A DNA stretch of 64,000 nucleotides from a virus. Both the position numbers and the translations under genes were made by a program. This document shows positions 2,395 through 24,966 of the stretch, one piece after another; the stretch's first letter is position 1; every line of letters starts with the position of its first letter. Under the pieces are notes generated by a model that was not told where the DNA came from, made no database searches, and saw nothing but the letters and a program-made list of their open reading frames with translations. The DNA lies in the IMG/VR virus record IMGVR_UViG_3300036772_000557, positions 1 to 64,000 of that record; one strand, 5' to 3'.

Positions 2395-2563
2395 CCGCTA
2401 ACCTGCATTCCAAAAGATCGTCAAGAGCCGCTTGCGTGGTTACGAGATCCGCGCCCCAGATGCTCGTAATCTCTGCGATGCAGCTACGAATAGCCGCTTG
2501 CCACACTTCCCGATCACGAGCGGACCAAGCGCGAGCGGCGCGGCATTGGGCGGGGGTGATCAT
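2372..2563 (-). CDS. hypothetical protein whose first 13 aa duplicate those of the downstream XRE protein
   Basis: MITPAQCRAARAW shared; ATGA overlap with upstream gene. Confidence 0.5.
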   Translation of the reverse strand: MITPAQCRAARAWSARDREVWQAAIRSCIAEITSIWGADLVTTQAALDDLLECRLADDNPSTV

Positions 2564-3012
2564 CGCGATTTCCCATCAACGAGACGAAGCGCTCGCTCTG
2601 CCATCTCAATTGTGTCACGCGATAGCAAATCCAGCGCTCGCCCCCGGCGACCGCCCTCCCCACATTCGATCAATAGCCGCCTAAGGGCGTGGTATAGAGC
2701 GGGGCCAGCCGACCGCTGAAGGCGCTCAGTCTCCTGCGGCGTAACTACGCGCGTTTGTGGGTTGCGCGCCTTTAACTCCGCGTAACTCATCAAGTCCCGA
2801 CCTTCCACGCGATCAGGCTGTGTCATCGCCGCCTTGGCGTCATCACAACATTCGATACAAATCCGAACATTACCAGGTCCAGCGACGGGGCGATGCTGAA
2901 GTTCCGCTTCAGATCGAGCACAAAACGAGCAATAGACAACAGGGGTGATCATCTCTGCAAGTTTCCATAGCTTGCCTGATCTGTCCATCTGATAACTCGC
3001 GATGCGTTTCAT
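2560..3012 (-). CDS. protein with ClpX-type C4 zinc-binding domain
   Basis: YCSFCARSEAELQHRPVAGPGNVRICIECC resembles the ClpX N-domain (CSFCGK...LIAGPGVYICDEC); alternative start MITP at 2952. Confidence 0.75.
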   Translation of the reverse strand: MKRIASYQMDRSGKLWKLAEMITPVVYCSFCARSEAELQHRPVAGPGNVRICIECCDDAKAAMTQPDRVEGRDLMSYAELKARNPQTRVVTPQETERLQRSAGPALYHALRRLLIECGEGGRRGRALDLLSRDTIEMAERALRLVDGKSR

Positions 3013-3048
3013 ATCATTCCCTCCGTTCCATGGGGTTGGGTGGGGTGA

Positions 3049-3342
3049 TCATGGCTGCAAAATTGCCGCTATTGCTGGCTCGACGAGGTCACGAAATGCT
3101 GACTCGTGATAGGATTTCGTGTCATAAATAACTTCGCCGCTAAAAAACTCGATATGGCCAAGACGCTGGACGTTTTTACTTATGTGACCATCGCTATCGA
3201 TAAAGCGCCCATCGAAATAAATGCGGCTCTTGCCGTTCTTCTCCCACACCTTGGCGCTCAGCAAATAGGTTCCGTAACCTGAAGTGACTAGGCGCTCACC
3301 GTTCAGCGCGGCAGATATTTTTTCGATTAGCTTAGGCATCAT
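3049..3342 (-). CDS. hypothetical phage protein (KVWEKNGKSRIY motif)
   Basis: GGAGGG RBS before MMPK; first gene after leftward promoter; lower GC. Confidence 0.65.
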   Translation of the reverse strand: MMPKLIEKISAALNGERLVTSGYGTYLLSAKVWEKNGKSRIYFDGRFIDSDGHISKNVQRLGHIEFFSGEVIYDTKSYHESAFRDLVEPAIAAILQP

Positions 3343-3363
3343 TCCCTCCGTTCCACCACCCTC

Positions 3364-3392
3364 AATATAGAATCTCCGGAACGCCACGTCAA
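3364..3392 (-). promoter_or_regulatory. sigma70-type promoter TTGACG-17-TATATT (leftward)
   Basis: cgtcaa 3387-3392 and aatata 3364-3369 on + strand, 17-bp spacer. Confidence 0.8.
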
Positions 3393-3421
3393 GTTTTTTC
3401 TCATCCCGACGCATATTTTCA

Positions 3422-3450
3422 TTGACGACCTCACGAGGCCACCCTATATT
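3422..3450 (+). promoter_or_regulatory. sigma70-type promoter TTGACG-17-TATATT (rightward)
   Basis: TTGACG 3422-3427, TATATT 3445-3450, 17-bp spacer containing palindrome CCTCACGAGG. Confidence 0.8.
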
Positions 3451-3530
3451 CCAATCATCAGAAACGAACCAACGCCATTCCCGTGAAAAAGGCCGGGGTC
3501 GCTACCTCCTCTAAGCCGGAGACGCGGGGA

Positions 3531-3583
3531 TGGGTCGCGGTGATGAGACACCGCCTGATGAGAGCCAGCGAGGACGAAACCCA
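3531..3583 (+). ncRNA. type III hammerhead ribozyme
   Basis: TGGGTC|GCGGTG-atgaga-CACCGC-CTGATGA-G..C-GAAA-CCCA: complete catalytic core, GUC cleavage triplet, perfect 6-bp stem I, stem III TGGGT/ACCCA; stem II is weak. Confidence 0.75.
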
Positions 3584-3883
3584 ATGCGCAACACGAATTA
3601 CTTCGGCCGGAAGATTGGCGCCGTTGTTACCGAGAAGCGCCGCGGCACGGTCTCTAGCGTGGTGGTCGGCGATGTTCGCCGCTTCACCGCCAACGAGCAG
3701 GAAATGGGGTCTGGCATCCTCAAGTTCATTCCTAAGATCGAATTGTCGGGCCCGGCTGCGAAGCGCATCGCTATAGGCCTCAGCGCTCTCAAAGCCGCGC
3801 AATGGAAACATGGTTGTGCCACTTGGGACTGCCTCGGCGATTACGACACCATGCTGTACTCGTATCGTGAGCGGGCGGCTTAG
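3584..3883 (+). CDS. hypothetical protein (99 aa)
   Basis: ATG directly after the ribozyme; GAGGA RBS inside stem II; ends in AA. Confidence 0.7.
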   Translation: MRNTNYFGRKIGAVVTEKRRGTVSSVVVGDVRRFTANEQEMGSGILKFIPKIELSGPAAKRIAIGLSALKAAQWKHGCATWDCLGDYDTMLYSYRERAA

Positions 3884-3931
3884 GCCGCCTTCCGCTTTCC
3901 CCCTCAACCCGATGAGCAGGAGCGAAACCCA

Positions 3932-4468
3932 ATGAGCGAGACGGAGTTTCCCGCAGAGGTCGTCAAGGACGCCACCCTCCCTAACGCTTGGCGAGTCGAA
4001 AAGCTTGATAGCGATGGCGACGGTGGTGTCGATCTAGCGATCTTCGATGGCCCAAATGCAGAAGCGCGAGCGCGGGAATATGCAGCCTGGAAATATGGAT
4101 CAAACGGCAGCAAGATCATCGCCGGGCTGCAGGATGCGCTTGCGCATGTTCGCGGCGATGTGACGGCTGCGCGTGTGTCCACAGTCAGCGATCCAGAACG
4201 CGAGAAGATGACGAAGTCTCAAGTGTGCGCTGATCGACTCCTTGGTGCAGCCGGGTTTGGCCCAGACGTTTTCGATACCGAGGAAGGCCACTTTGCTGGC
4301 TATGATCCAATGCTCAGCGCTTTCCTGTATCGCAAGGGGAAGATGCACGTCGCTGTACGACCCGATGGTCGGTTTGAATGGCACACCGACAGCGGGCGGT
4401 TTGGCGGCGGCGGCAAAGCCACGCTTGACGACGAAAGCATCGAAAGTCTCGCCCGTGCTACAGAATAG
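3932..4468 (+). CDS. hypothetical, apparently chimeric phage protein
   Basis: AGGAG RBS; N-terminal WRVE..DGDGG..AIFDGPNAEARAREYA domain, central SKIIAGLQDALAHVRG segment. Confidence 0.65.
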   Translation: MSETEFPAEVVKDATLPNAWRVEKLDSDGDGGVDLAIFDGPNAEARAREYAAWKYGSNGSKIIAGLQDALAHVRGDVTAARVSTVSDPEREKMTKSQVCADRLLGAAGFGPDVFDTEEGHFAGYDPMLSAFLYRKGKMHVAVRPDGRFEWHTDSGRFGGGGKATLDDESIESLARATE

Positions 4469-4515
4469 GCAAGCCGCCCGAACACCGACGAAACTGAGGA
4501 TCAGGAGTGAAACCC

Positions 4516-4701
4516 ATGAATCTCACGGACAGGCTTTATCGCGCCCTCGCGGTCCTGGTAGCGCAACATGATCGGCCACACGGCTTTAGCGATGAGCATT
4601 GGTATCGCGAGGCGCTTGAAACGGCGCGCGCCGCTCTAGCAGACGCCTTCGTGGAAATGAACTCATCAGACAACGCCACAGACAGTGGATCGCCACAATA
4701 G
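4516..4701 (+). CDS. cassette gene, hypothetical
   Basis: CAGGAG RBS; stop TAG inside repeat; ends TDSGSPQ. Confidence 0.65.
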   Translation: MNLTDRLYRALAVLVAQHDRPHGFSDEHWYREALETARAALADAFVEMNSSDNATDSGSPQ

Positions 4702-4763
4702 GCGAGCAGCCCCGAACACCGATGAAATCAACTACTTACACGTCTGTCGAACAGGAGGAACTG

Positions 4764-4985
4764 ATGCTCGGTACCAACAAACCAATTTGGTGGAGCCCAA
4801 CAATGCCGCACGACGAGGTCACGATTGACGAGCGCCTAAGAAACCTCGGTTATACGCACAGCAAGTCTCGACTCCTAGCTTATGCATCGACAGGAAAGCA
4901 CGAAATTCGCGATCCGCAGGGCAATGTGGTTGGACACTTCACTGCCAGCGAAGCGTGCGAGTTACTCGCTCGTCTCGGTGGGTAA
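4764..4985 (+). CDS. cassette gene, hypothetical
   Basis: AGGAGG RBS at 4753-4758 before MLGTNK. Confidence 0.65.
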   Translation: MLGTNKPIWWSPTMPHDEVTIDERLRNLGYTHSKSRLLAYASTGKHEIRDPQGNVVGHFTASEACELLARLGG

Positions 4986-5015
4986 TAGGCGAGCAGCCCG
5001 AACACCGAGGAAATC

Positions 5016-5216
5016 ATGACCGTTAAAATAAATCCACAAAATCTCCCGCCAGACAAGGCGCGCCACACAATAACAATCGGACGTGGCGGCGGGCGAGCTC
5101 TCATCATCAACGGCAAGTTTTTCTTGCCAAAAAAGGGAACTGAAGACGAATGGATATCTGACGATGGATCAACGATCCAGGGAACAAAACATACAGACGG
5201 TTGCTCGCCACAATAG
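5016..5216 (+). CDS. cassette gene, hypothetical
   Basis: GAGGA RBS supplied by repeat tail; ends TDGCSPQ. Confidence 0.65.
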   Translation: MTVKINPQNLPPDKARHTITIGRGGGRALIINGKFFLPKKGTEDEWISDDGSTIQGTKHTDGCSPQ

Positions 5217-5261
5217 GCGAGCAGCAGGAACACCGCCGAAATCCAATCATTGGAGGAGCAG

Positions 5262-5492
5262 ATGAACGATACCGCCTACGAGATCCGCAACTGCTACATT
5301 AGCAACGGCGAGGAAATCGTTGCGGAGCGTCTTTATGGCTATTTCGATTACACCGAGCTCGAAGAGTTTATTCAACGCTTTATTCGTAGCATTCTGGCTC
5401 CAGGCTGGAGGTCGTACCTGAGCATCGTGGATCACGACGGAAGAGAACGAAATTTCGTGAAATACGCCGCAGACGGCGGCTCGCCACAATAG
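5262..5492 (+). CDS. cassette gene, hypothetical
   Basis: GGAGGAG RBS before MNDTAY; ends ADGGSPQ. Confidence 0.65.
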   Translation: MNDTAYEIRNCYISNGEEIVAERLYGYFDYTELEEFIQRFIRSILAPGWRSYLSIVDHDGRERNFVKYAADGGSPQ

Positions 5493-5522
5493 GCGAGCAG
5501 CCCGAACACCGGAGAGCAAACG

Positions 5523-5753
5523 ATGTTTAAATTCGAGCCAGCGTTCGGCGAGTCAGATCGCCAGCATGAGGTAACCGACTGGAGCCAAGCAAAGGACCAA
5601 TTTTTGGAGCACCAAACTTACGAAGGCGCTGAACGCTATATCCTGACTACCCTATCGCTTCTCAAAGGGAACCTGATTGGTAACGACGAATATCGGACCA
5701 TGATCCGGCGCGTCGGGAAGTTCATTGACGCGTTCGGCGTCTACACACCTTAA
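5523..5753 (+). CDS. cassette gene, hypothetical
   Basis: GGAG RBS in repeat tail; TAA abuts the sixth repeat. Confidence 0.65.
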   Translation: MFKFEPAFGESDRQHEVTDWSQAKDQFLEHQTYEGAERYILTTLSLLKGNLIGNDEYRTMIRRVGKFIDAFGVYTP

Positions 5754-5786
5754 AATAGGCGAGCAGCCCGAACACCGATGAAATTA

Positions 5787-5859
5787 CCCCGTGCGAGTCG
5801 CAGAGCCCGGCCGAAGAGGTCGGGCCGAACAACGGGTGCAAATCCCGTGACGGGGGCCA
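5787..5859 (+). ncRNA. tRNA-like structured RNA ending in CCA
   Basis: Acceptor-like CCCCGT/ACGGGG + G + CCA; T arm ACGGG-TGCAAAT-CCCGT; central hairpin GCCCGGCC-GAAGA-GGTCGGGC; no canonical D or anticodon loop. Confidence 0.55.
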
Positions 5860-5884
5860 ACCAGATGAGCAGGAGCGAAACCCT

Positions 5885-5965
5885 ATGATTATCGCGATGA
5901 TATGCCTTAGTGCCCTAATCACGGCATGGATGGCTACTACCGATACCCCGAGCGCCGCTGCATAA
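5885..5965 (+). CDS. 26-aa hydrophobic peptide
   Basis: MIIAMICLSALITAWMATTDTPSAAA*, preceded by AGGAG RBS in a hammerhead-like unit. Confidence 0.45.
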   Translation: MIIAMICLSALITAWMATTDTPSAAA

Positions 5966-6123
5966 CCTTATTCAAAGAGGAGTAACCGATCGAGGAACCG
6001 ATCACCCCTGCTGACGGGGCCGCCCCTGAATATCGAGGCAGGGGCGGTCGGCTAAAGCGCAGGCTCGGCCATCAAACTTCGAAACGCGCTCCCATACAGA
6101 TGAGCGGAACAAGTCTGGCGTGG

Positions 6124-7974
6124 TCATGCCAACCCATAAGCGATGACTCGGGCATCGTATGGCGTCAGATACAGGATGCCGTCTGCGACTACAGGACCGA
6201 GAAATTTATTGAAGTCGAACTCATGGTTCCATCGTTGGCTGTCCCAGATGAGCGGGATCACTGCCCCGTTCGGACCCTCCTTGAACTGCGTCAGGTCATA
6301 GCCGAGCAGCCGACCGCGCGTGACCTCGCGGTTGGCGTCGCCGTAAGGGATGGTGGCGAACAAGACTGGTGTCTCAGCGGGTCGCGCCTGATCGTAGCAC
6401 AGGGACATGAACCCGCCCGGCATCCCGCCGGGGGGGACCGCCGCCTCGGGGCTGGCGTATTCCTCGCCGGCCGCGAGATAGGTGATTTTCACGTGGGGGG
6501 AGAGGCCGTGGATCGGCTCGATGCTCCACATCCGCAGGGTACTGTTCTCGCCCCAGCAGAGAAGCCGCCACCCCTGCGGGCTTTTCCATACGATCGGTGA
6601 GCCGTGCTGATGGTGTGTCCGACTGTAAAAAAGCTTGTTGAGATCCCTGATGTCGCTGGGCATCGGGCTTGCATCGGACGTGTAAAAGGTGAACCATATC
6701 GGTAGGCACGCCAACGCCATGTAATTTTTTGCGATCCCCTGCGCGGTCGACAGCATTTCCGGCGTCGTGCCGCCCATCGCGTTCAGGCGGACCGCGTAGA
6801 GGATGCCGTCCTTCCCAGAGACGAGGCAGAGCTCGAGCTCCTCGATGACGACCGGACCGCCCGAACCGAGATCCATGTCGATCGCCTCGGCCGGATTAAG
6901 CGGGACGTTGCCCGTGGCGGCATCTATCCTCTCGGCCGGCACCATCGCATAGCGCCGTAGGTTAGTGGGCGGCCGTTCCCGACGCGTCTGCTGAGCGATC
7001 TGTGTTGCCGCGACAACCGTTTCCGGCACCGTAACGGAAACCGCTTTCGGGGCCGCTACGCGGGCGCTATCGAGGAAGGGGCTCCAATGGTCGACCACCT
7101 TCAGTTCGCCCATCAGGGCGGGCCCGGGCGGCGTGTAGCGCAGCTTGATGACGCACTCTCCCCACTCGGTCTTGCCATCGAAGGTGCCGTTGCCGGTTAC
7201 CAGGATGATGTCGCCCTTGCTGTCGGCCGCGAGCCCCGCACCGGCCTGCCAGATACCGCCTCCCGAACCGATGACCGCGGTGCACAATGTGGCGGTGACT
7301 CTCCACAGCCGGACGTCGACGGCGATCACCCAGCCGCGGTTCGATGCGTCAATCTCGTAGATCGAGCCGAACCCGATGAACACGGTTTGCCCGAGCATCA
7401 GCAACGATGCCCGTTGCTTGCGGGCCGCGCTCGCGAATTTCTGTGGCGGGATCCCGCCGGGATCGTAGACAGCGCCCTCGAGGTCGAGCGGCTGCTTCGC
7501 GCGCGCTCCCGAGACGAGCGAGACCGCCTCGAGGAAGTGCCGAGCTCGAGCCACCGACCCGTCAGGGCTCGCCCAGCTGCAGGCGTAGAGCGTCTGGGTC
7601 GCCGGGTCGATGACTGGGGTCGACAGAATTCCCCAGTGGTCGTTAACAGCCCATCCGTCTATCGATTTATTGCCGTCGATCGGCCGACCGAGTTCGCGCT
7701 TCCAAAGCTCCGCACCAGTCTTCGCATCCGCACAGACGATCTCGTTCGCCATGGTCGCTACGACGAGCAGGTCGTGCACCTGGCCGTTCGTGAGACGCAC
7801 GCCCGGCAGGGTCAGGGGCTGCGCCTCAGCGCCGCGCGCGTCTCCCGGGAGGGGAAGCTCGTAGAGTTTTTTGATCCCGCGCGTCGCGACCGCCTGGGCC
7901 GTCAGAACGGTTTCGTTGGGATTCACCCCGGCGTTATCGGTCGTGTAGGCGCGGCGCGTGACCGCGACTGCCAT
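6124..7974 (-). CDS. PQQ-repeat-like beta-propeller protein (~616 aa)
   Basis: NETVLT...AQPL...DAKTGAELWKR...GILSTPVIDP...GGGIWQAGAGLAAD...DLGSGGP pattern; start placed at TAATG overlap with GGAGAG RBS; no signal peptide. Confidence 0.75.
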   Translation of the reverse strand: MAVAVTRRAYTTDNAGVNPNETVLTAQAVATRGIKKLYELPLPGDARGAEAQPLTLPGVRLTNGQVHDLLVVATMANEIVCADAKTGAELWKRELGRPIDGNKSIDGWAVNDHWGILSTPVIDPATQTLYACSWASPDGSVARARHFLEAVSLVSGARAKQPLDLEGAVYDPGGIPPQKFASAARKQRASLLMLGQTVFIGFGSIYEIDASNRGWVIAVDVRLWRVTATLCTAVIGSGGGIWQAGAGLAADSKGDIILVTGNGTFDGKTEWGECVIKLRYTPPGPALMGELKVVDHWSPFLDSARVAAPKAVSVTVPETVVAATQIAQQTRRERPPTNLRRYAMVPAERIDAATGNVPLNPAEAIDMDLGSGGPVVIEELELCLVSGKDGILYAVRLNAMGGTTPEMLSTAQGIAKNYMALACLPIWFTFYTSDASPMPSDIRDLNKLFYSRTHHQHGSPIVWKSPQGWRLLCWGENSTLRMWSIEPIHGLSPHVKITYLAAGEEYASPEAAVPPGGMPGGFMSLCYDQARPAETPVLFATIPYGDANREVTRGRLLGYDLTQFKEGPNGAVIPLIWDSQRWNHEFDFNKFLGPVVADGILYLTPYDARVIAYGLA

Positions 7975-23826: not shown

Positions 23827-24172
23827 ACCGATTCTCACGCTTGCAGACATAGCAAAACGCATGCGCGTGTCGGTTCGGACCGTGCAGCGGCGCATCACAG
23901 AGTCGGGCCTTGAGTTCGCTCGGCCCGGGCGGTCCTATGTTTTCACCGAAGCAGACTACGCGCTGCTTTTTGAGGCTACCCGATGCCGTTCAAACTCATC
24001 CCGCCAGGGACCAGAAAAAACAACCCCTTCTACCTCGTCCGCGGCACGGTCGACGGGCGAGACATTGAGGTCTCTGCGAAAACGAGAGACAAAGCGGCTG
24101 CTAAAAGGTTTGCGGCAGAACTCGAGCGGGAGCTCCTCGCGCGTCGTATCCCTCGACCTGGAGAAGCGATAA
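23819..24172 (+). CDS. excisionase-like HTH protein
   Basis: ILTLADIAKRMRVSVRTVQRRI...GRSYVFTEAD; overlaps integrase 5' end. Confidence 0.75.
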   Translation: MPEPILTLADIAKRMRVSVRTVQRRITESGLEFARPGRSYVFTEADYALLFEATRCRSNSSRQGPEKTTPSTSSAARSTGETLRSLRKRETKRLLKGLRQNSSGSSSRVVSLDLEKR

Positions 24173-24966
24173 CATTCGCCGCGGCAGCTGATCTGTATAT
24201 CTCCTACCGGGATCCCATTAAGGCCGATGTCGGCCGCATCGATCGGCTCAAACGCGTGATCGGCAAAAAGGTAGTCGCCGACATCCGCCAAGCCGACCTT
24301 GTCGCCGCCGCCGATCTCCTGCAGCCCAACAAGGCGCCGGCGACGCGCAACCGCGAGGTCATTCGAATGGCCGCATCGATCCTGCACTACGCCCACGAAA
24401 ACGGCTATTGCGATTGGCTTCGGGTGAAGCTGTTCAAAGAACCGGCGCCGCGGACGCGCGCCGTCACGATGGATGTGGCCGCGGAGCTAATCGAGGCCGC
24501 TCCCGCCGGGCCGCACCAGCTGTTGCTGTTGTGGCTGTTCCGGCACGGCACGCGGATTAGCCAGACGCTCAGTGTGACGTGGGACGATATCGACCTGCCG
24601 CAGCAGTCGTTCCGGCTGTACGACAAGAAGGGAGGATGCTGGCGGGTCTTCCCGTTGCATCCGGAAGTGTTCGAGCAGCTCGCCGCGATGCCGGCGCGCA
24701 GCGGCCGGCTGTGGCCATGGGAGACGAAATCAGGCGTCTACAAGTGGCTTCGCCCGTTGACGCGGAAGCTGGGGATCGCGTTCACCCCCCATGTCGGAAG
24801 GCATTCACTCGGGACGTGGCTGAATGAGAGCGGCGCCGGGCTGCGGACGATCATGGCTACACTTGGCCACCAGGACGCCAAGAGCTCGATCCGGTATCAG
24901 GCCGCCGACATTGAAATCGTGCGAGCAGCAGCGGTGAAAATTGGCCCGATTGGGAGAAAAATATGA
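23983..24966 (+). CDS. int: tyrosine integrase
   Basis: HGTRISQ (R), DKKG (K), HVGRHS (HxxR), LGH, terminal RY. Confidence 0.93.
   Translation: MPFKLIPPGTRKNNPFYLVRGTVDGRDIEVSAKTRDKAAAKRFAAELERELLARRIPRPGEAITFAAAADLYISYRDPIKADVGRIDRLKRVIGKKVVADIRQADLVAAADLLQPNKAPATRNREVIRMAASILHYAHENGYCDWLRVKLFKEPAPRTRAVTMDVAAELIEAAPAGPHQLLLLWLFRHGTRISQTLSVTWDDIDLPQQSFRLYDKKGGCWRVFPLHPEVFEQLAAMPARSGRLWPWETKSGVYKWLRPLTRKLGIAFTPHVGRHSLGTWLNESGAGLRTIMATLGHQDAKSSIRYQAADIEIVRAAAVKIGPIGRKI

Follow-up and report, generated by a model that had tools for sequence, protein, structure and literature searches.

A stop-codon-anchored repeat in the mini-gene array of a soil phage as a candidate junction module for gene exchange

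The first 64,000 nt (hereafter the window) of IMG/VR virus record IMGVR_UViG_3300036772_000557, which is 90,448 bp long and classed as a provirus, contain an operon of very small genes whose ends are marked by six copies of one short repeat, here named R. The locus raises the question of why the same few tens of nucleotides recur at the boundaries of otherwise unrelated genes and whether the repeat serves the DNA, as a site of gene capture or exchange, or the transcript, as a signal between cistrons. We assign a probability of roughly one half to the reading in which R is a junction or 'linker' module of a hyperplastic accessory-gene array, used in gene exchange as a patch of homology and probably also active in the mRNA.

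Repeat R at the ends of unrelated mini-genes

R consists of a 24-nt core, AATAGGCGAGCAGCCCGAACACCG, usually followed by NNGAAAT. Its six co-oriented copies occupy 4464-5785 on the + strand (Table 1), starting at 4464, 4697, 4984, 5212, 5488 and 5754 with spacings of 233, 287, 228, 276 and 266 nt, in agreement with the initial annotation of this DNA, and dinucleotide shuffles produced 0 matches by chance. Copies 3, 5 and 6 are identical across the 24 nt; there are two mismatches in copy 1, likewise in copy 4, and a single additional C in copy 2. Exactly one open reading frame (ORF) lies between successive copies and, as had been noticed from the sequence alone, these five ORFs of 61-76 aa encode mutually unrelated proteins, apart from a tail common to ORF1, ORF3 and ORF4. 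A stop codon stands at the start of every R: the TAG within AATAGG terminates gene B (upstream of the first interval), ORF1, ORF3 and ORF4, follows the TAA of ORF2 as another stop in the same frame and lies just past the TAA of ORF5. From the end of R to the next ATG, the distance is 2, ~7, 20, 35, 40 or >100 nt.

In copies 2, 4 and 5, R takes a 40-nt long form that extends into the upstream ORF and gives it the tail DSGSPQ, DGCSPQ or DGGSPQ; the left arm ascribed to these three copies in the initial annotation is confirmed as this long form. Since the tail codons TCG CCA CAA (then TAG) are invariant at synonymous sites in all three copies, the tail is conserved as nucleotides and not as amino acids. 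The limits of R vary at both the 5' and the 3' end, with long and short forms, a copy 5 that is cut after CACCG, and copies 1 and 4 that are internally changed. Such variable limits suit crossovers at differing points of a homology patch, not a fixed cleavage site.

Beyond the array, the 90,448-bp record holds no further copy of R by fuzzy search or by a sequence model built from the copies (E<=10). Queries of IMG/VR with an exact 22-mer, two degenerate patterns and an 18-mer of the long form retrieved only a 32-kb phage contig, G406, plus single coding chance matches. Among GTDB representatives, a degenerate pattern gave at least 120 single matches, with the R flanks present in none of the matches listed, and an exact 21-mer gave 16 single matches in JGI metagenomes, all of them coding. 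A repetitive extragenic palindromic (REP) sequence or bacterial interspersed mosaic element (BIME) of the host was rejected on these single matches (the 16 coding ones in JGI and one per locus among the GTDB matches listed).

R might also be a remnant of unequal crossing-over or local duplication that has no function and happens to persist, a reading favoured by the small number of copies at a single locus and by their differing 5' and 3' limits. But the genes between the copies are unrelated, so segmental duplication cannot have spread the repeat; R is, moreover, retained in G406 amid genes that are all different, and three copies in the window are identical over 24 nt. We regard such an origin as highly unlikely.

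The mini-genes appear to be real, at least in part, since 15 of the 19 differences between ORF1 and its counterpart in a variant contig fall at codon position 3 (our count) and four close relatives of ORF2 occur in other soil samples. Each of ORF1-ORF5 has a Shine-Dalgarno (SD) sequence 5-9 nt ahead of its ATG. Neither Pfam nor PHROG assigned a family to the cargo genes, no homologues of ORF1 and ORF4 were found beyond their own clusters, and the cargo proteins had no usable structural neighbour in the Atlas. A homologue of ORF1 (P0003) ends in NATDGQG where the window protein ends in NATDSGSPQ, and its called N terminus, MDEQERNPM, is the start module S (described below) read through. Small orphan genes of phage early regions are a recurrent source of anti-defence and host-takeover functions. 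The array is probably read from one promoter, as had been proposed: within 2400-6600, + strand sigma-70-like sites were found only at the operon promoter (Table 1) and, as a 9/12 site, at 2989-3017, and none lies in the array.

Shared junctions in a related phage and in soil populations

The initial annotation had suggested comparing related phages for gene changes at the repeat, and in G406 gene content does differ. All blastn matches between this contig and the window comprise a gene for a ClpX-type zinc finger (83% identity), the leader of the operon at 3445-3533 (91%), S (94-97%), the segment 6004-6047 (95%) and a single unrelated patch of 181 nt; a tblastx comparison of both arrays matched only S and R. 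One good copy of R in G406 (CGCCACAATAGGCGAGCATCCCGCACC...; CGCCACAATAGGCGAGCA.CCCG) follows an unrelated gene ending in TDGSPPQ, with a degenerate copy upstream. On this comparison, which covers one relative and short contigs, the two phages appear to share the punctuation of the operon (leader, S, R and terminator) and none of the intervening genes. Near-invariant as it is, and also kept in G406, R seems to have a function of its own.

S is a conserved SD-spacer-start unit, GATGAGCAGGAGCGAAACCC-A/T-ATG. It precedes gene B and the last small ORF of the operon, and diverged forms precede gene A and ORF1. Used as a probe in IMG/VR, S retrieved three otherwise unrelated contigs, G406, G407 and G408, the last two sharing with the others only the ~110-nt leader plus S. 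Derivation of R from S was rejected, with a local alignment score of 9 that was reached in 510 of 5000 shuffles.

We infer that the array was made by recombination at R and that R has been retained for an added function in the mRNA. The operon would be built of short shared signals (promoter plus leader, S, R and terminator), with single orphan genes slotted between them. As R carries a stop codon and in its long form also the last 6-8 codons, any frame joined to it would be closed. With the same 24-40 nt present at many gene boundaries of related phages, homologous recombination between copies of R (or S) could insert, delete or replace single genes, carried out by the RecE-type nuclease of the phage and a putative annealase or by the RecA of the host. 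The phage encodes a RecE-family nuclease (phrog_412, E 4e-76) and, directly after it, an AAA_24 protein, a family that includes Sak4-type annealases; phage recombinases of the RecE/annealase kind use homologies of a few tens of bases. A unit with one R that integrated into a resident R would give n genes and n+1 repeats, as in the array. In addition, R may be kept for service in the mRNA, for example as a 3' hairpin or an intercistronic element in its long form, and an intercistronic mRNA role would be the most plausible function.

Contigs from two soil metagenome runs that contain the stretch (and may be its source samples) bear on this model. They end in 30-nt overlaps at 5196-5225, 5482-5511 and 5754-5783, inside R, and at 3911-3940, inside S. 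The longest sequence common to any two R copies of this genome is 25 nt; with the Logan assembly graph taken as k=31, such ends therefore suggest that other sequences carry the same words of R and S with other neighbours. One contig runs through ORF3 (3 differences in 387 nt) and R and then departs from the window for 239 nt, 24 of which match the window again at the left arm of R copy 5; it probably holds a different or strongly diverged gene in the slot of ORF4. Both runs also show a joint from 3533 to 3909 in which gene A gives way to 21 letters identical to the G406 leader. Two further joints are of low depth: one from 5512 to 3904 puts S and gene B immediately after a canonical R, 'going back' in a way that fits another gene order and mini-circles equally well, and one from 4432 to 5757 places a variant tail plus R after gene B. 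In one of the two runs, parts of the array have thin coverage or none, which was given no weight. Taken together, the population contigs are suggestive of exchange at R and S, not conclusive.

Several points weigh against R as a junction module. No recombinant junction is seen end to end in the contigs, and the joints are either short-sided (24 nt) or thinly covered (depth 2-2.5) in runs that may be the source sample. Only one R-bearing relative was retrieved, and in that relative most gene boundaries lack R and one copy is intact, so R is dispensable at some boundaries. A homology patch alone is insufficient to account for the conservation of R, and a molecular function must be assumed. The model also leaves unexplained that ORF2-ORF5 share one reading frame over 990 nt (4764-5753), interrupted only by the stops in R (TAA-TAG, TAG and TAG) and with linkers of 30, 45 and 30 nt; the chance of three in-frame junctions is ~0.04. 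Recoding of TAG, or a suppressor tRNA, was rejected, as no tRNA gene was found in the 90 kb and TAG ends 9 of 67 long ORFs.

A wider version of the junction-module reading can be put forward only tentatively. R and S might be population-wide connectors, a shared grammar that would let unrelated soil phages swap orphan genes as plug-in units, with R donating the last codons and the stop; the in-frame chain from ORF2 to ORF5 would then permit occasional amber read-through fusions. We consider this possible, and on the doubtful side.

Hairpins, cleavage sites and binding sites

R had been described as the right arm of a hairpin whose structure is conserved while its sequence varies, a claim that is not supported for the family as a whole. 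An in-register stem with GGCGAG(CAGC) forms in copies 2, 4 and 5 (5, 10 and 7 bp, with the stop codon at the loop), against 1, 0 and 2 contiguous in-register pairs in copies 1, 3 and 6 and a 4-bp stem in the R of G406. Of the fold z-scores, only those of copies 4 and 5 (-4.8 and -4.7) are significant; copy 2 has -2.0, and copies 1, 3 and 6 (+1.3, -1.7 and -1.3) fold no better than shuffles. For the alternative left arms suggested earlier for copies 3 and 6, 31% and 15%, respectively, of the other 37-nt windows of the same region pair equally well or better. The left arms of copies 2, 4 and 5 are homologous and the right arm is unvarying, so there is no covariation and no compensatory change. 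The hairpin is a property of the long form of R, not of the whole family. Rfam gave no match at the gathering score in the 64 kb and nothing overlapping R at E<=10 in 3000-6500, and a catalogued RNA was rejected as the identity of R, there being no covariance-model match to it. Stems in R are not followed by a T/U run, and a terminator scan found none on the + strand.

These folds also bear on the proposal that R is purely an mRNA signal, be it a cut mark in a polycistronic early transcript or a hairpin that shields the upstream cistron from 3' exonucleases, with exchange incidental or absent. The strict orientation of R with transcription and its position at the stop codon would suit such a role, as would the stable hairpins of copies 4 and 5 with the stop at the loop, a single-stranded GAAAU after them and the lack of an internal promoter. 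Yet the hairpin is absent or at background in half of the copies and reduced to 4 bp in G406, covariation is lacking, no U tract or Rfam family is present, and most gene boundaries of G406 do without R. Cleavage in the manner of phage T7 offers a specific comparison. The RNase III sites of its early genes resemble R in being intercistronic and co-oriented in a polycistronic early transcript, but they form irregular hairpins of ~20 bp at each site. Stems of at most 10 bp are too short for a site of this kind, copies 1, 3 and 6 have none in register, and a T7-type RNase III site was rejected. An exclusive role in the mRNA, thus, appears unlikely to us.

R might alternatively bind a phage or host protein, either as a stoperator-like DNA roadblock that silences an operator-less operon in the lysogen or as an RNA site for a translational repressor. 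The stoperators of Cluster A mycobacteriophages are asymmetric sites that follow the direction of transcription and occupy short intergenic spaces at stop or start codons; they share the sequence of the repressor operator and are spread genome-wide (PMC4351075). R is likewise asymmetric, oriented and located at gene boundaries, and a near-invariant 24-nt element over stop codons in short intergenic spaces fits the published descriptions (PMC4351075, PMC3203893). Its distribution does not: R is confined to 1.3 kb (4464-5785), with no copy elsewhere in 90 kb and none at the promoter, and membership in a stoperator set was rejected on this ground. The distance to the next start, from 2 to >100 nt, also speaks against a binding site, and no candidate binding protein was identified. 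We judge a protein-binding role distinctly unlikely.

Comparison with known junction repeats

The array had been likened to integron attC arrays and to the promoter-early stem-loop (PeSL) arrays of T4-type phages, a shuffling platform of which the PeSL-like half stands, with a relative that differs at breakpoints in the junction modules, and the integron mechanism does not. In the integron reading, R would be the attachment site of a site-specific recombinase that captures genes at a non-attC sequence. The array resembles attC arrays in that each repeat goes with a single ORF lacking its own promoter, all ORFs run in one direction from a shared upstream promoter, and the repeat lies over the stop codon, as in some attC sites. 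In contrast, attC sites measure 57-141 nt, have an inverted R''/L''-L'/R' structure and a GTTRRRY core and have IntI adjacent, whereas R, at 24-40 nt, has no inverted cores, no GTT or GTTRRRY and no RYYYAAC, and its variable limits suit homologous exchange. An IntI gene adjoining the array is absent, and the sole tyrosine recombinase, a generic type at 23983-24966 and 18 kb from the array, scored 41 bits against the cut-off of 265 for integron integrase TIGR02249 and 26 against 435 for NF011946. Site-specific capture is, thus, largely refuted, and we give it hardly any chance.

A PeSL consists of a sigma-70-like promoter and a terminator stem-loop; copies recombine homologously, and circular intermediates can yield n genes with n+1 repeats (PMC2839356, PMC4122927). 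R and S share with PeSLs that they are short and conserved, that the orphan genes between them are small, non-essential and part of a hyperplastic region, and that relatives differ by insertion, deletion or replacement of genes at the units. Unlike them, R has no promoter and no U tract, forms a hairpin in half of its copies, is anchored at the stop and reaches into coding sequence, and PeSL phages are T4-like myoviruses, whereas this phage is temperate with ~61% G+C. A strict PeSL was rejected, with no promoter in or near R and no terminating stem-loop.

The start-associated sequences (SAS) and extended SAS (ESAS) of Cluster K mycobacteriophages are conserved asymmetric repeats that stand in one orientation before many unrelated genes (PMC3203893). 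S is a direct analogue of the SAS, with an SD, a fixed 9-nt spacer and ATG at a short fixed distance from the start, and R, with its inverted left arm upstream of an SD, recalls the ESAS; however, R is tied to the upstream stop, sequence similarity is lacking, and six copies in one operon contrast with dozens genome-wide. A 17-bp direct repeat in Cluster O lies on both sides of a gene that is present in one phage and absent in relatives, which has been read as recombination at the repeat (PMC4351075). R contains CCGAACA, half of the Cluster O palindrome, but unlike the Cluster O repeat it is not a dyad.

Conserved junction repeats for modular exchange (PeSLs) and oriented intergenic repeats (SAS/ESAS, stoperators and those of Cluster O) are, therefore, already known. 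What is new is that the junction unit of a temperate soil phage of high G+C content lacks a promoter, has its anchor at the stop codon and extends into coding sequence. Gain and loss of early orphan genes have been documented for few groups, T4-type phages with PeSLs and some mycobacteriophages with repeats; if our reading is true, module-mediated exchange of single genes would extend to temperate, high-G+C soil phages, and R and S could serve as short probes for further arrays. The comparison also corrects both the integron analogy and the claim of covariation.

The phage and the surrounding locus

The phage carrying the array is a temperate soil phage of high G+C content (60.8% overall, against ~52-58% in the array genes). 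Phage genes occur throughout the record, among them those for a large terminase, portal, methylase, tail tube, integrase and the RecE-family nuclease, and a tail protein of 2,882 aa with a lysozyme domain. The closest cultured phages have hosts among Alphaproteobacteria and reach 24-29% identity in one structural protein; no cultured phage matched 3400-6100 by blastn. In IMG/VR, gene B, a propeller protein and an alignment of ORF2 found no relatives, and the propeller protein gave only weak matches in 401 Alphaproteobacteria. The features of the operon are collected in Table 1.

Table 1. Features of the rightward operon and its repeats, in window coordinates
Feature	Position	Strand	Remarks
Leftward-facing twin promoter	3392-3364
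Sigma-70-like promoter of the rightward operon	3422-3450	+	TTGACG-17-TATATT
Transcribed leader	3445-3583	+	3445-3533 91% identical to G406 leader; similar in G407 and G408
Gene A	3584-3883	+	99 aa; orphan; S-like SD/start module ahead of start
S module	3905-3934	+	GATGAGCAGGAGCGAAACCCAATG; conserved SD-spacer-start unit common to G406, G407 and G408
Gene B	3932-4468	+	178 aa; first ~55 aa a small domain, alone or fused elsewhere
R copy 1	4464-4494	+	2 core mismatches; gives gene B its TAG stop; diverged S module next at 4490-4518
ORF1	4516-4701	+	61 aa; SD AGGAG
R copy 2, long form	4673-4728	+	left extension 4673-4696 within ORF1; core from 4697, one extra C
ORF2	4764-4985	+	73 aa; four close relatives in soil metagenomes
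R copy 3, canonical core	4984-5014	+	TAA then in-frame TAG; 3' end holds SD of ORF3
ORF3	5016-5216	+	66 aa
R copy 4, long form	5188-5242	+	10-bp hairpin, stop codon at loop; core CAGG replaces CCCG
ORF4	5262-5492	+	76 aa; homologue not found
R copy 5, long form	5464-5511	+	7-bp hairpin; 3' part replaced by SD of ORF5
ORF5	5523-5753	+	76 aa; helical by Atlas model
R copy 6, canonical core	5754-5784	+	immediately 3' of ORF5 TAA
S module ahead of last small gene	5858-5887	+
Hydrophobic ORF, operon end	5885-5965	+	26 aa
G+C-rich hairpins at operon end	6004-6055	+	6004-6047 95% identical to G406

The ~110-nt leader ending in S is common to four phage contigs with next to no other DNA similarity (3445-3586 in the window, 2150-2257 in L165 of G407, 1130-1239 in L166 and 5420-5525 in L167 of G406). 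In G407 and G408, it comprises GGGUC, a 6-bp hairpin, CUGAUGA, GCAGGAGC, GAAAC, CC and the start codon. This arrangement fits a type III hammerhead core in which the site is GUC and stem II has 2 bp, with stem I covarying from contig to contig. The window leader has GGC for GUC, and that of G406 has CCGAUGA; Rfam reported no hammerhead in the leaders of the window, G406, G407 or G408. A hammerhead formed by R plus S was rejected, with no GGGU or stem I in R and no Rfam match. G407 has its own start-associated module, (A)CAGGAGCACAGCAGATGACCACC, ahead of three consecutive small genes (L165 2440-2880); in one instance the module is part of the 3' end of the gene before it, which overlaps the next by ATGA.

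Each R-type junction of G406 is followed by a 57-nt module with SD and start (L167 6044-6100 and 6331-6387; copies 84% identical), in which a 9-bp hairpin, CGGUGUUCG...CGAACGCCG, has one arm resembling the inverted 3' half of R. The hairpins at 6004-6047 of the window are 95% identical to the start of another G406 element (L167 7596-7731), which matches the Rfam Proteo-phage-1 RNA below threshold (31.8 bits against 42, E 0.016). Similarity between the window and G406 stops at 6047, and exactly there contigs of both soil runs continue as G406-like sequence. A 'tRNA-like' element after R copy 6 (5784-5863) was not called by ARAGORN and matched only Tymo_tRNA-like (16 bits, E 4.7), so that its assignment to a known RNA is not supported.

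The N-terminal domain of gene B (3932-4111; FPAEVV..AWRVEKLDSDGDGG..WKYG) recurs at 67-80% identity in contigs from ENA, JGI and NCBI, either C-terminal to unrelated N-terminal parts or on its own downstream of an S-like module. Of 401 genomes from the order of a Bradyrhizobium, 7 carry distant copies, with no R-like array at those loci; in cultured phages none was found. Two fusion proteins (P0018 and P0019) contain GSPQ and PPEH strings that might represent R read through, a lead only.

Upstream of the operon, on the - strand, 2560-3012 encodes a ClpX-type C4 zinc finger protein of 150 aa without the ATPase module (Pfam PF06689, E 4e-7). Its gene is the one with 83% DNA identity to G406, and four shorter close relatives occur in metagenomes. 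An exact 18-nt repeat, ATCATTCCCTCCGTTCCA, at 3013-3030 and 3338-3355 constitutes, on the - strand, an SD plus ATG ahead of two leftward genes, which suggests that the divergent array likewise reuses a start module.

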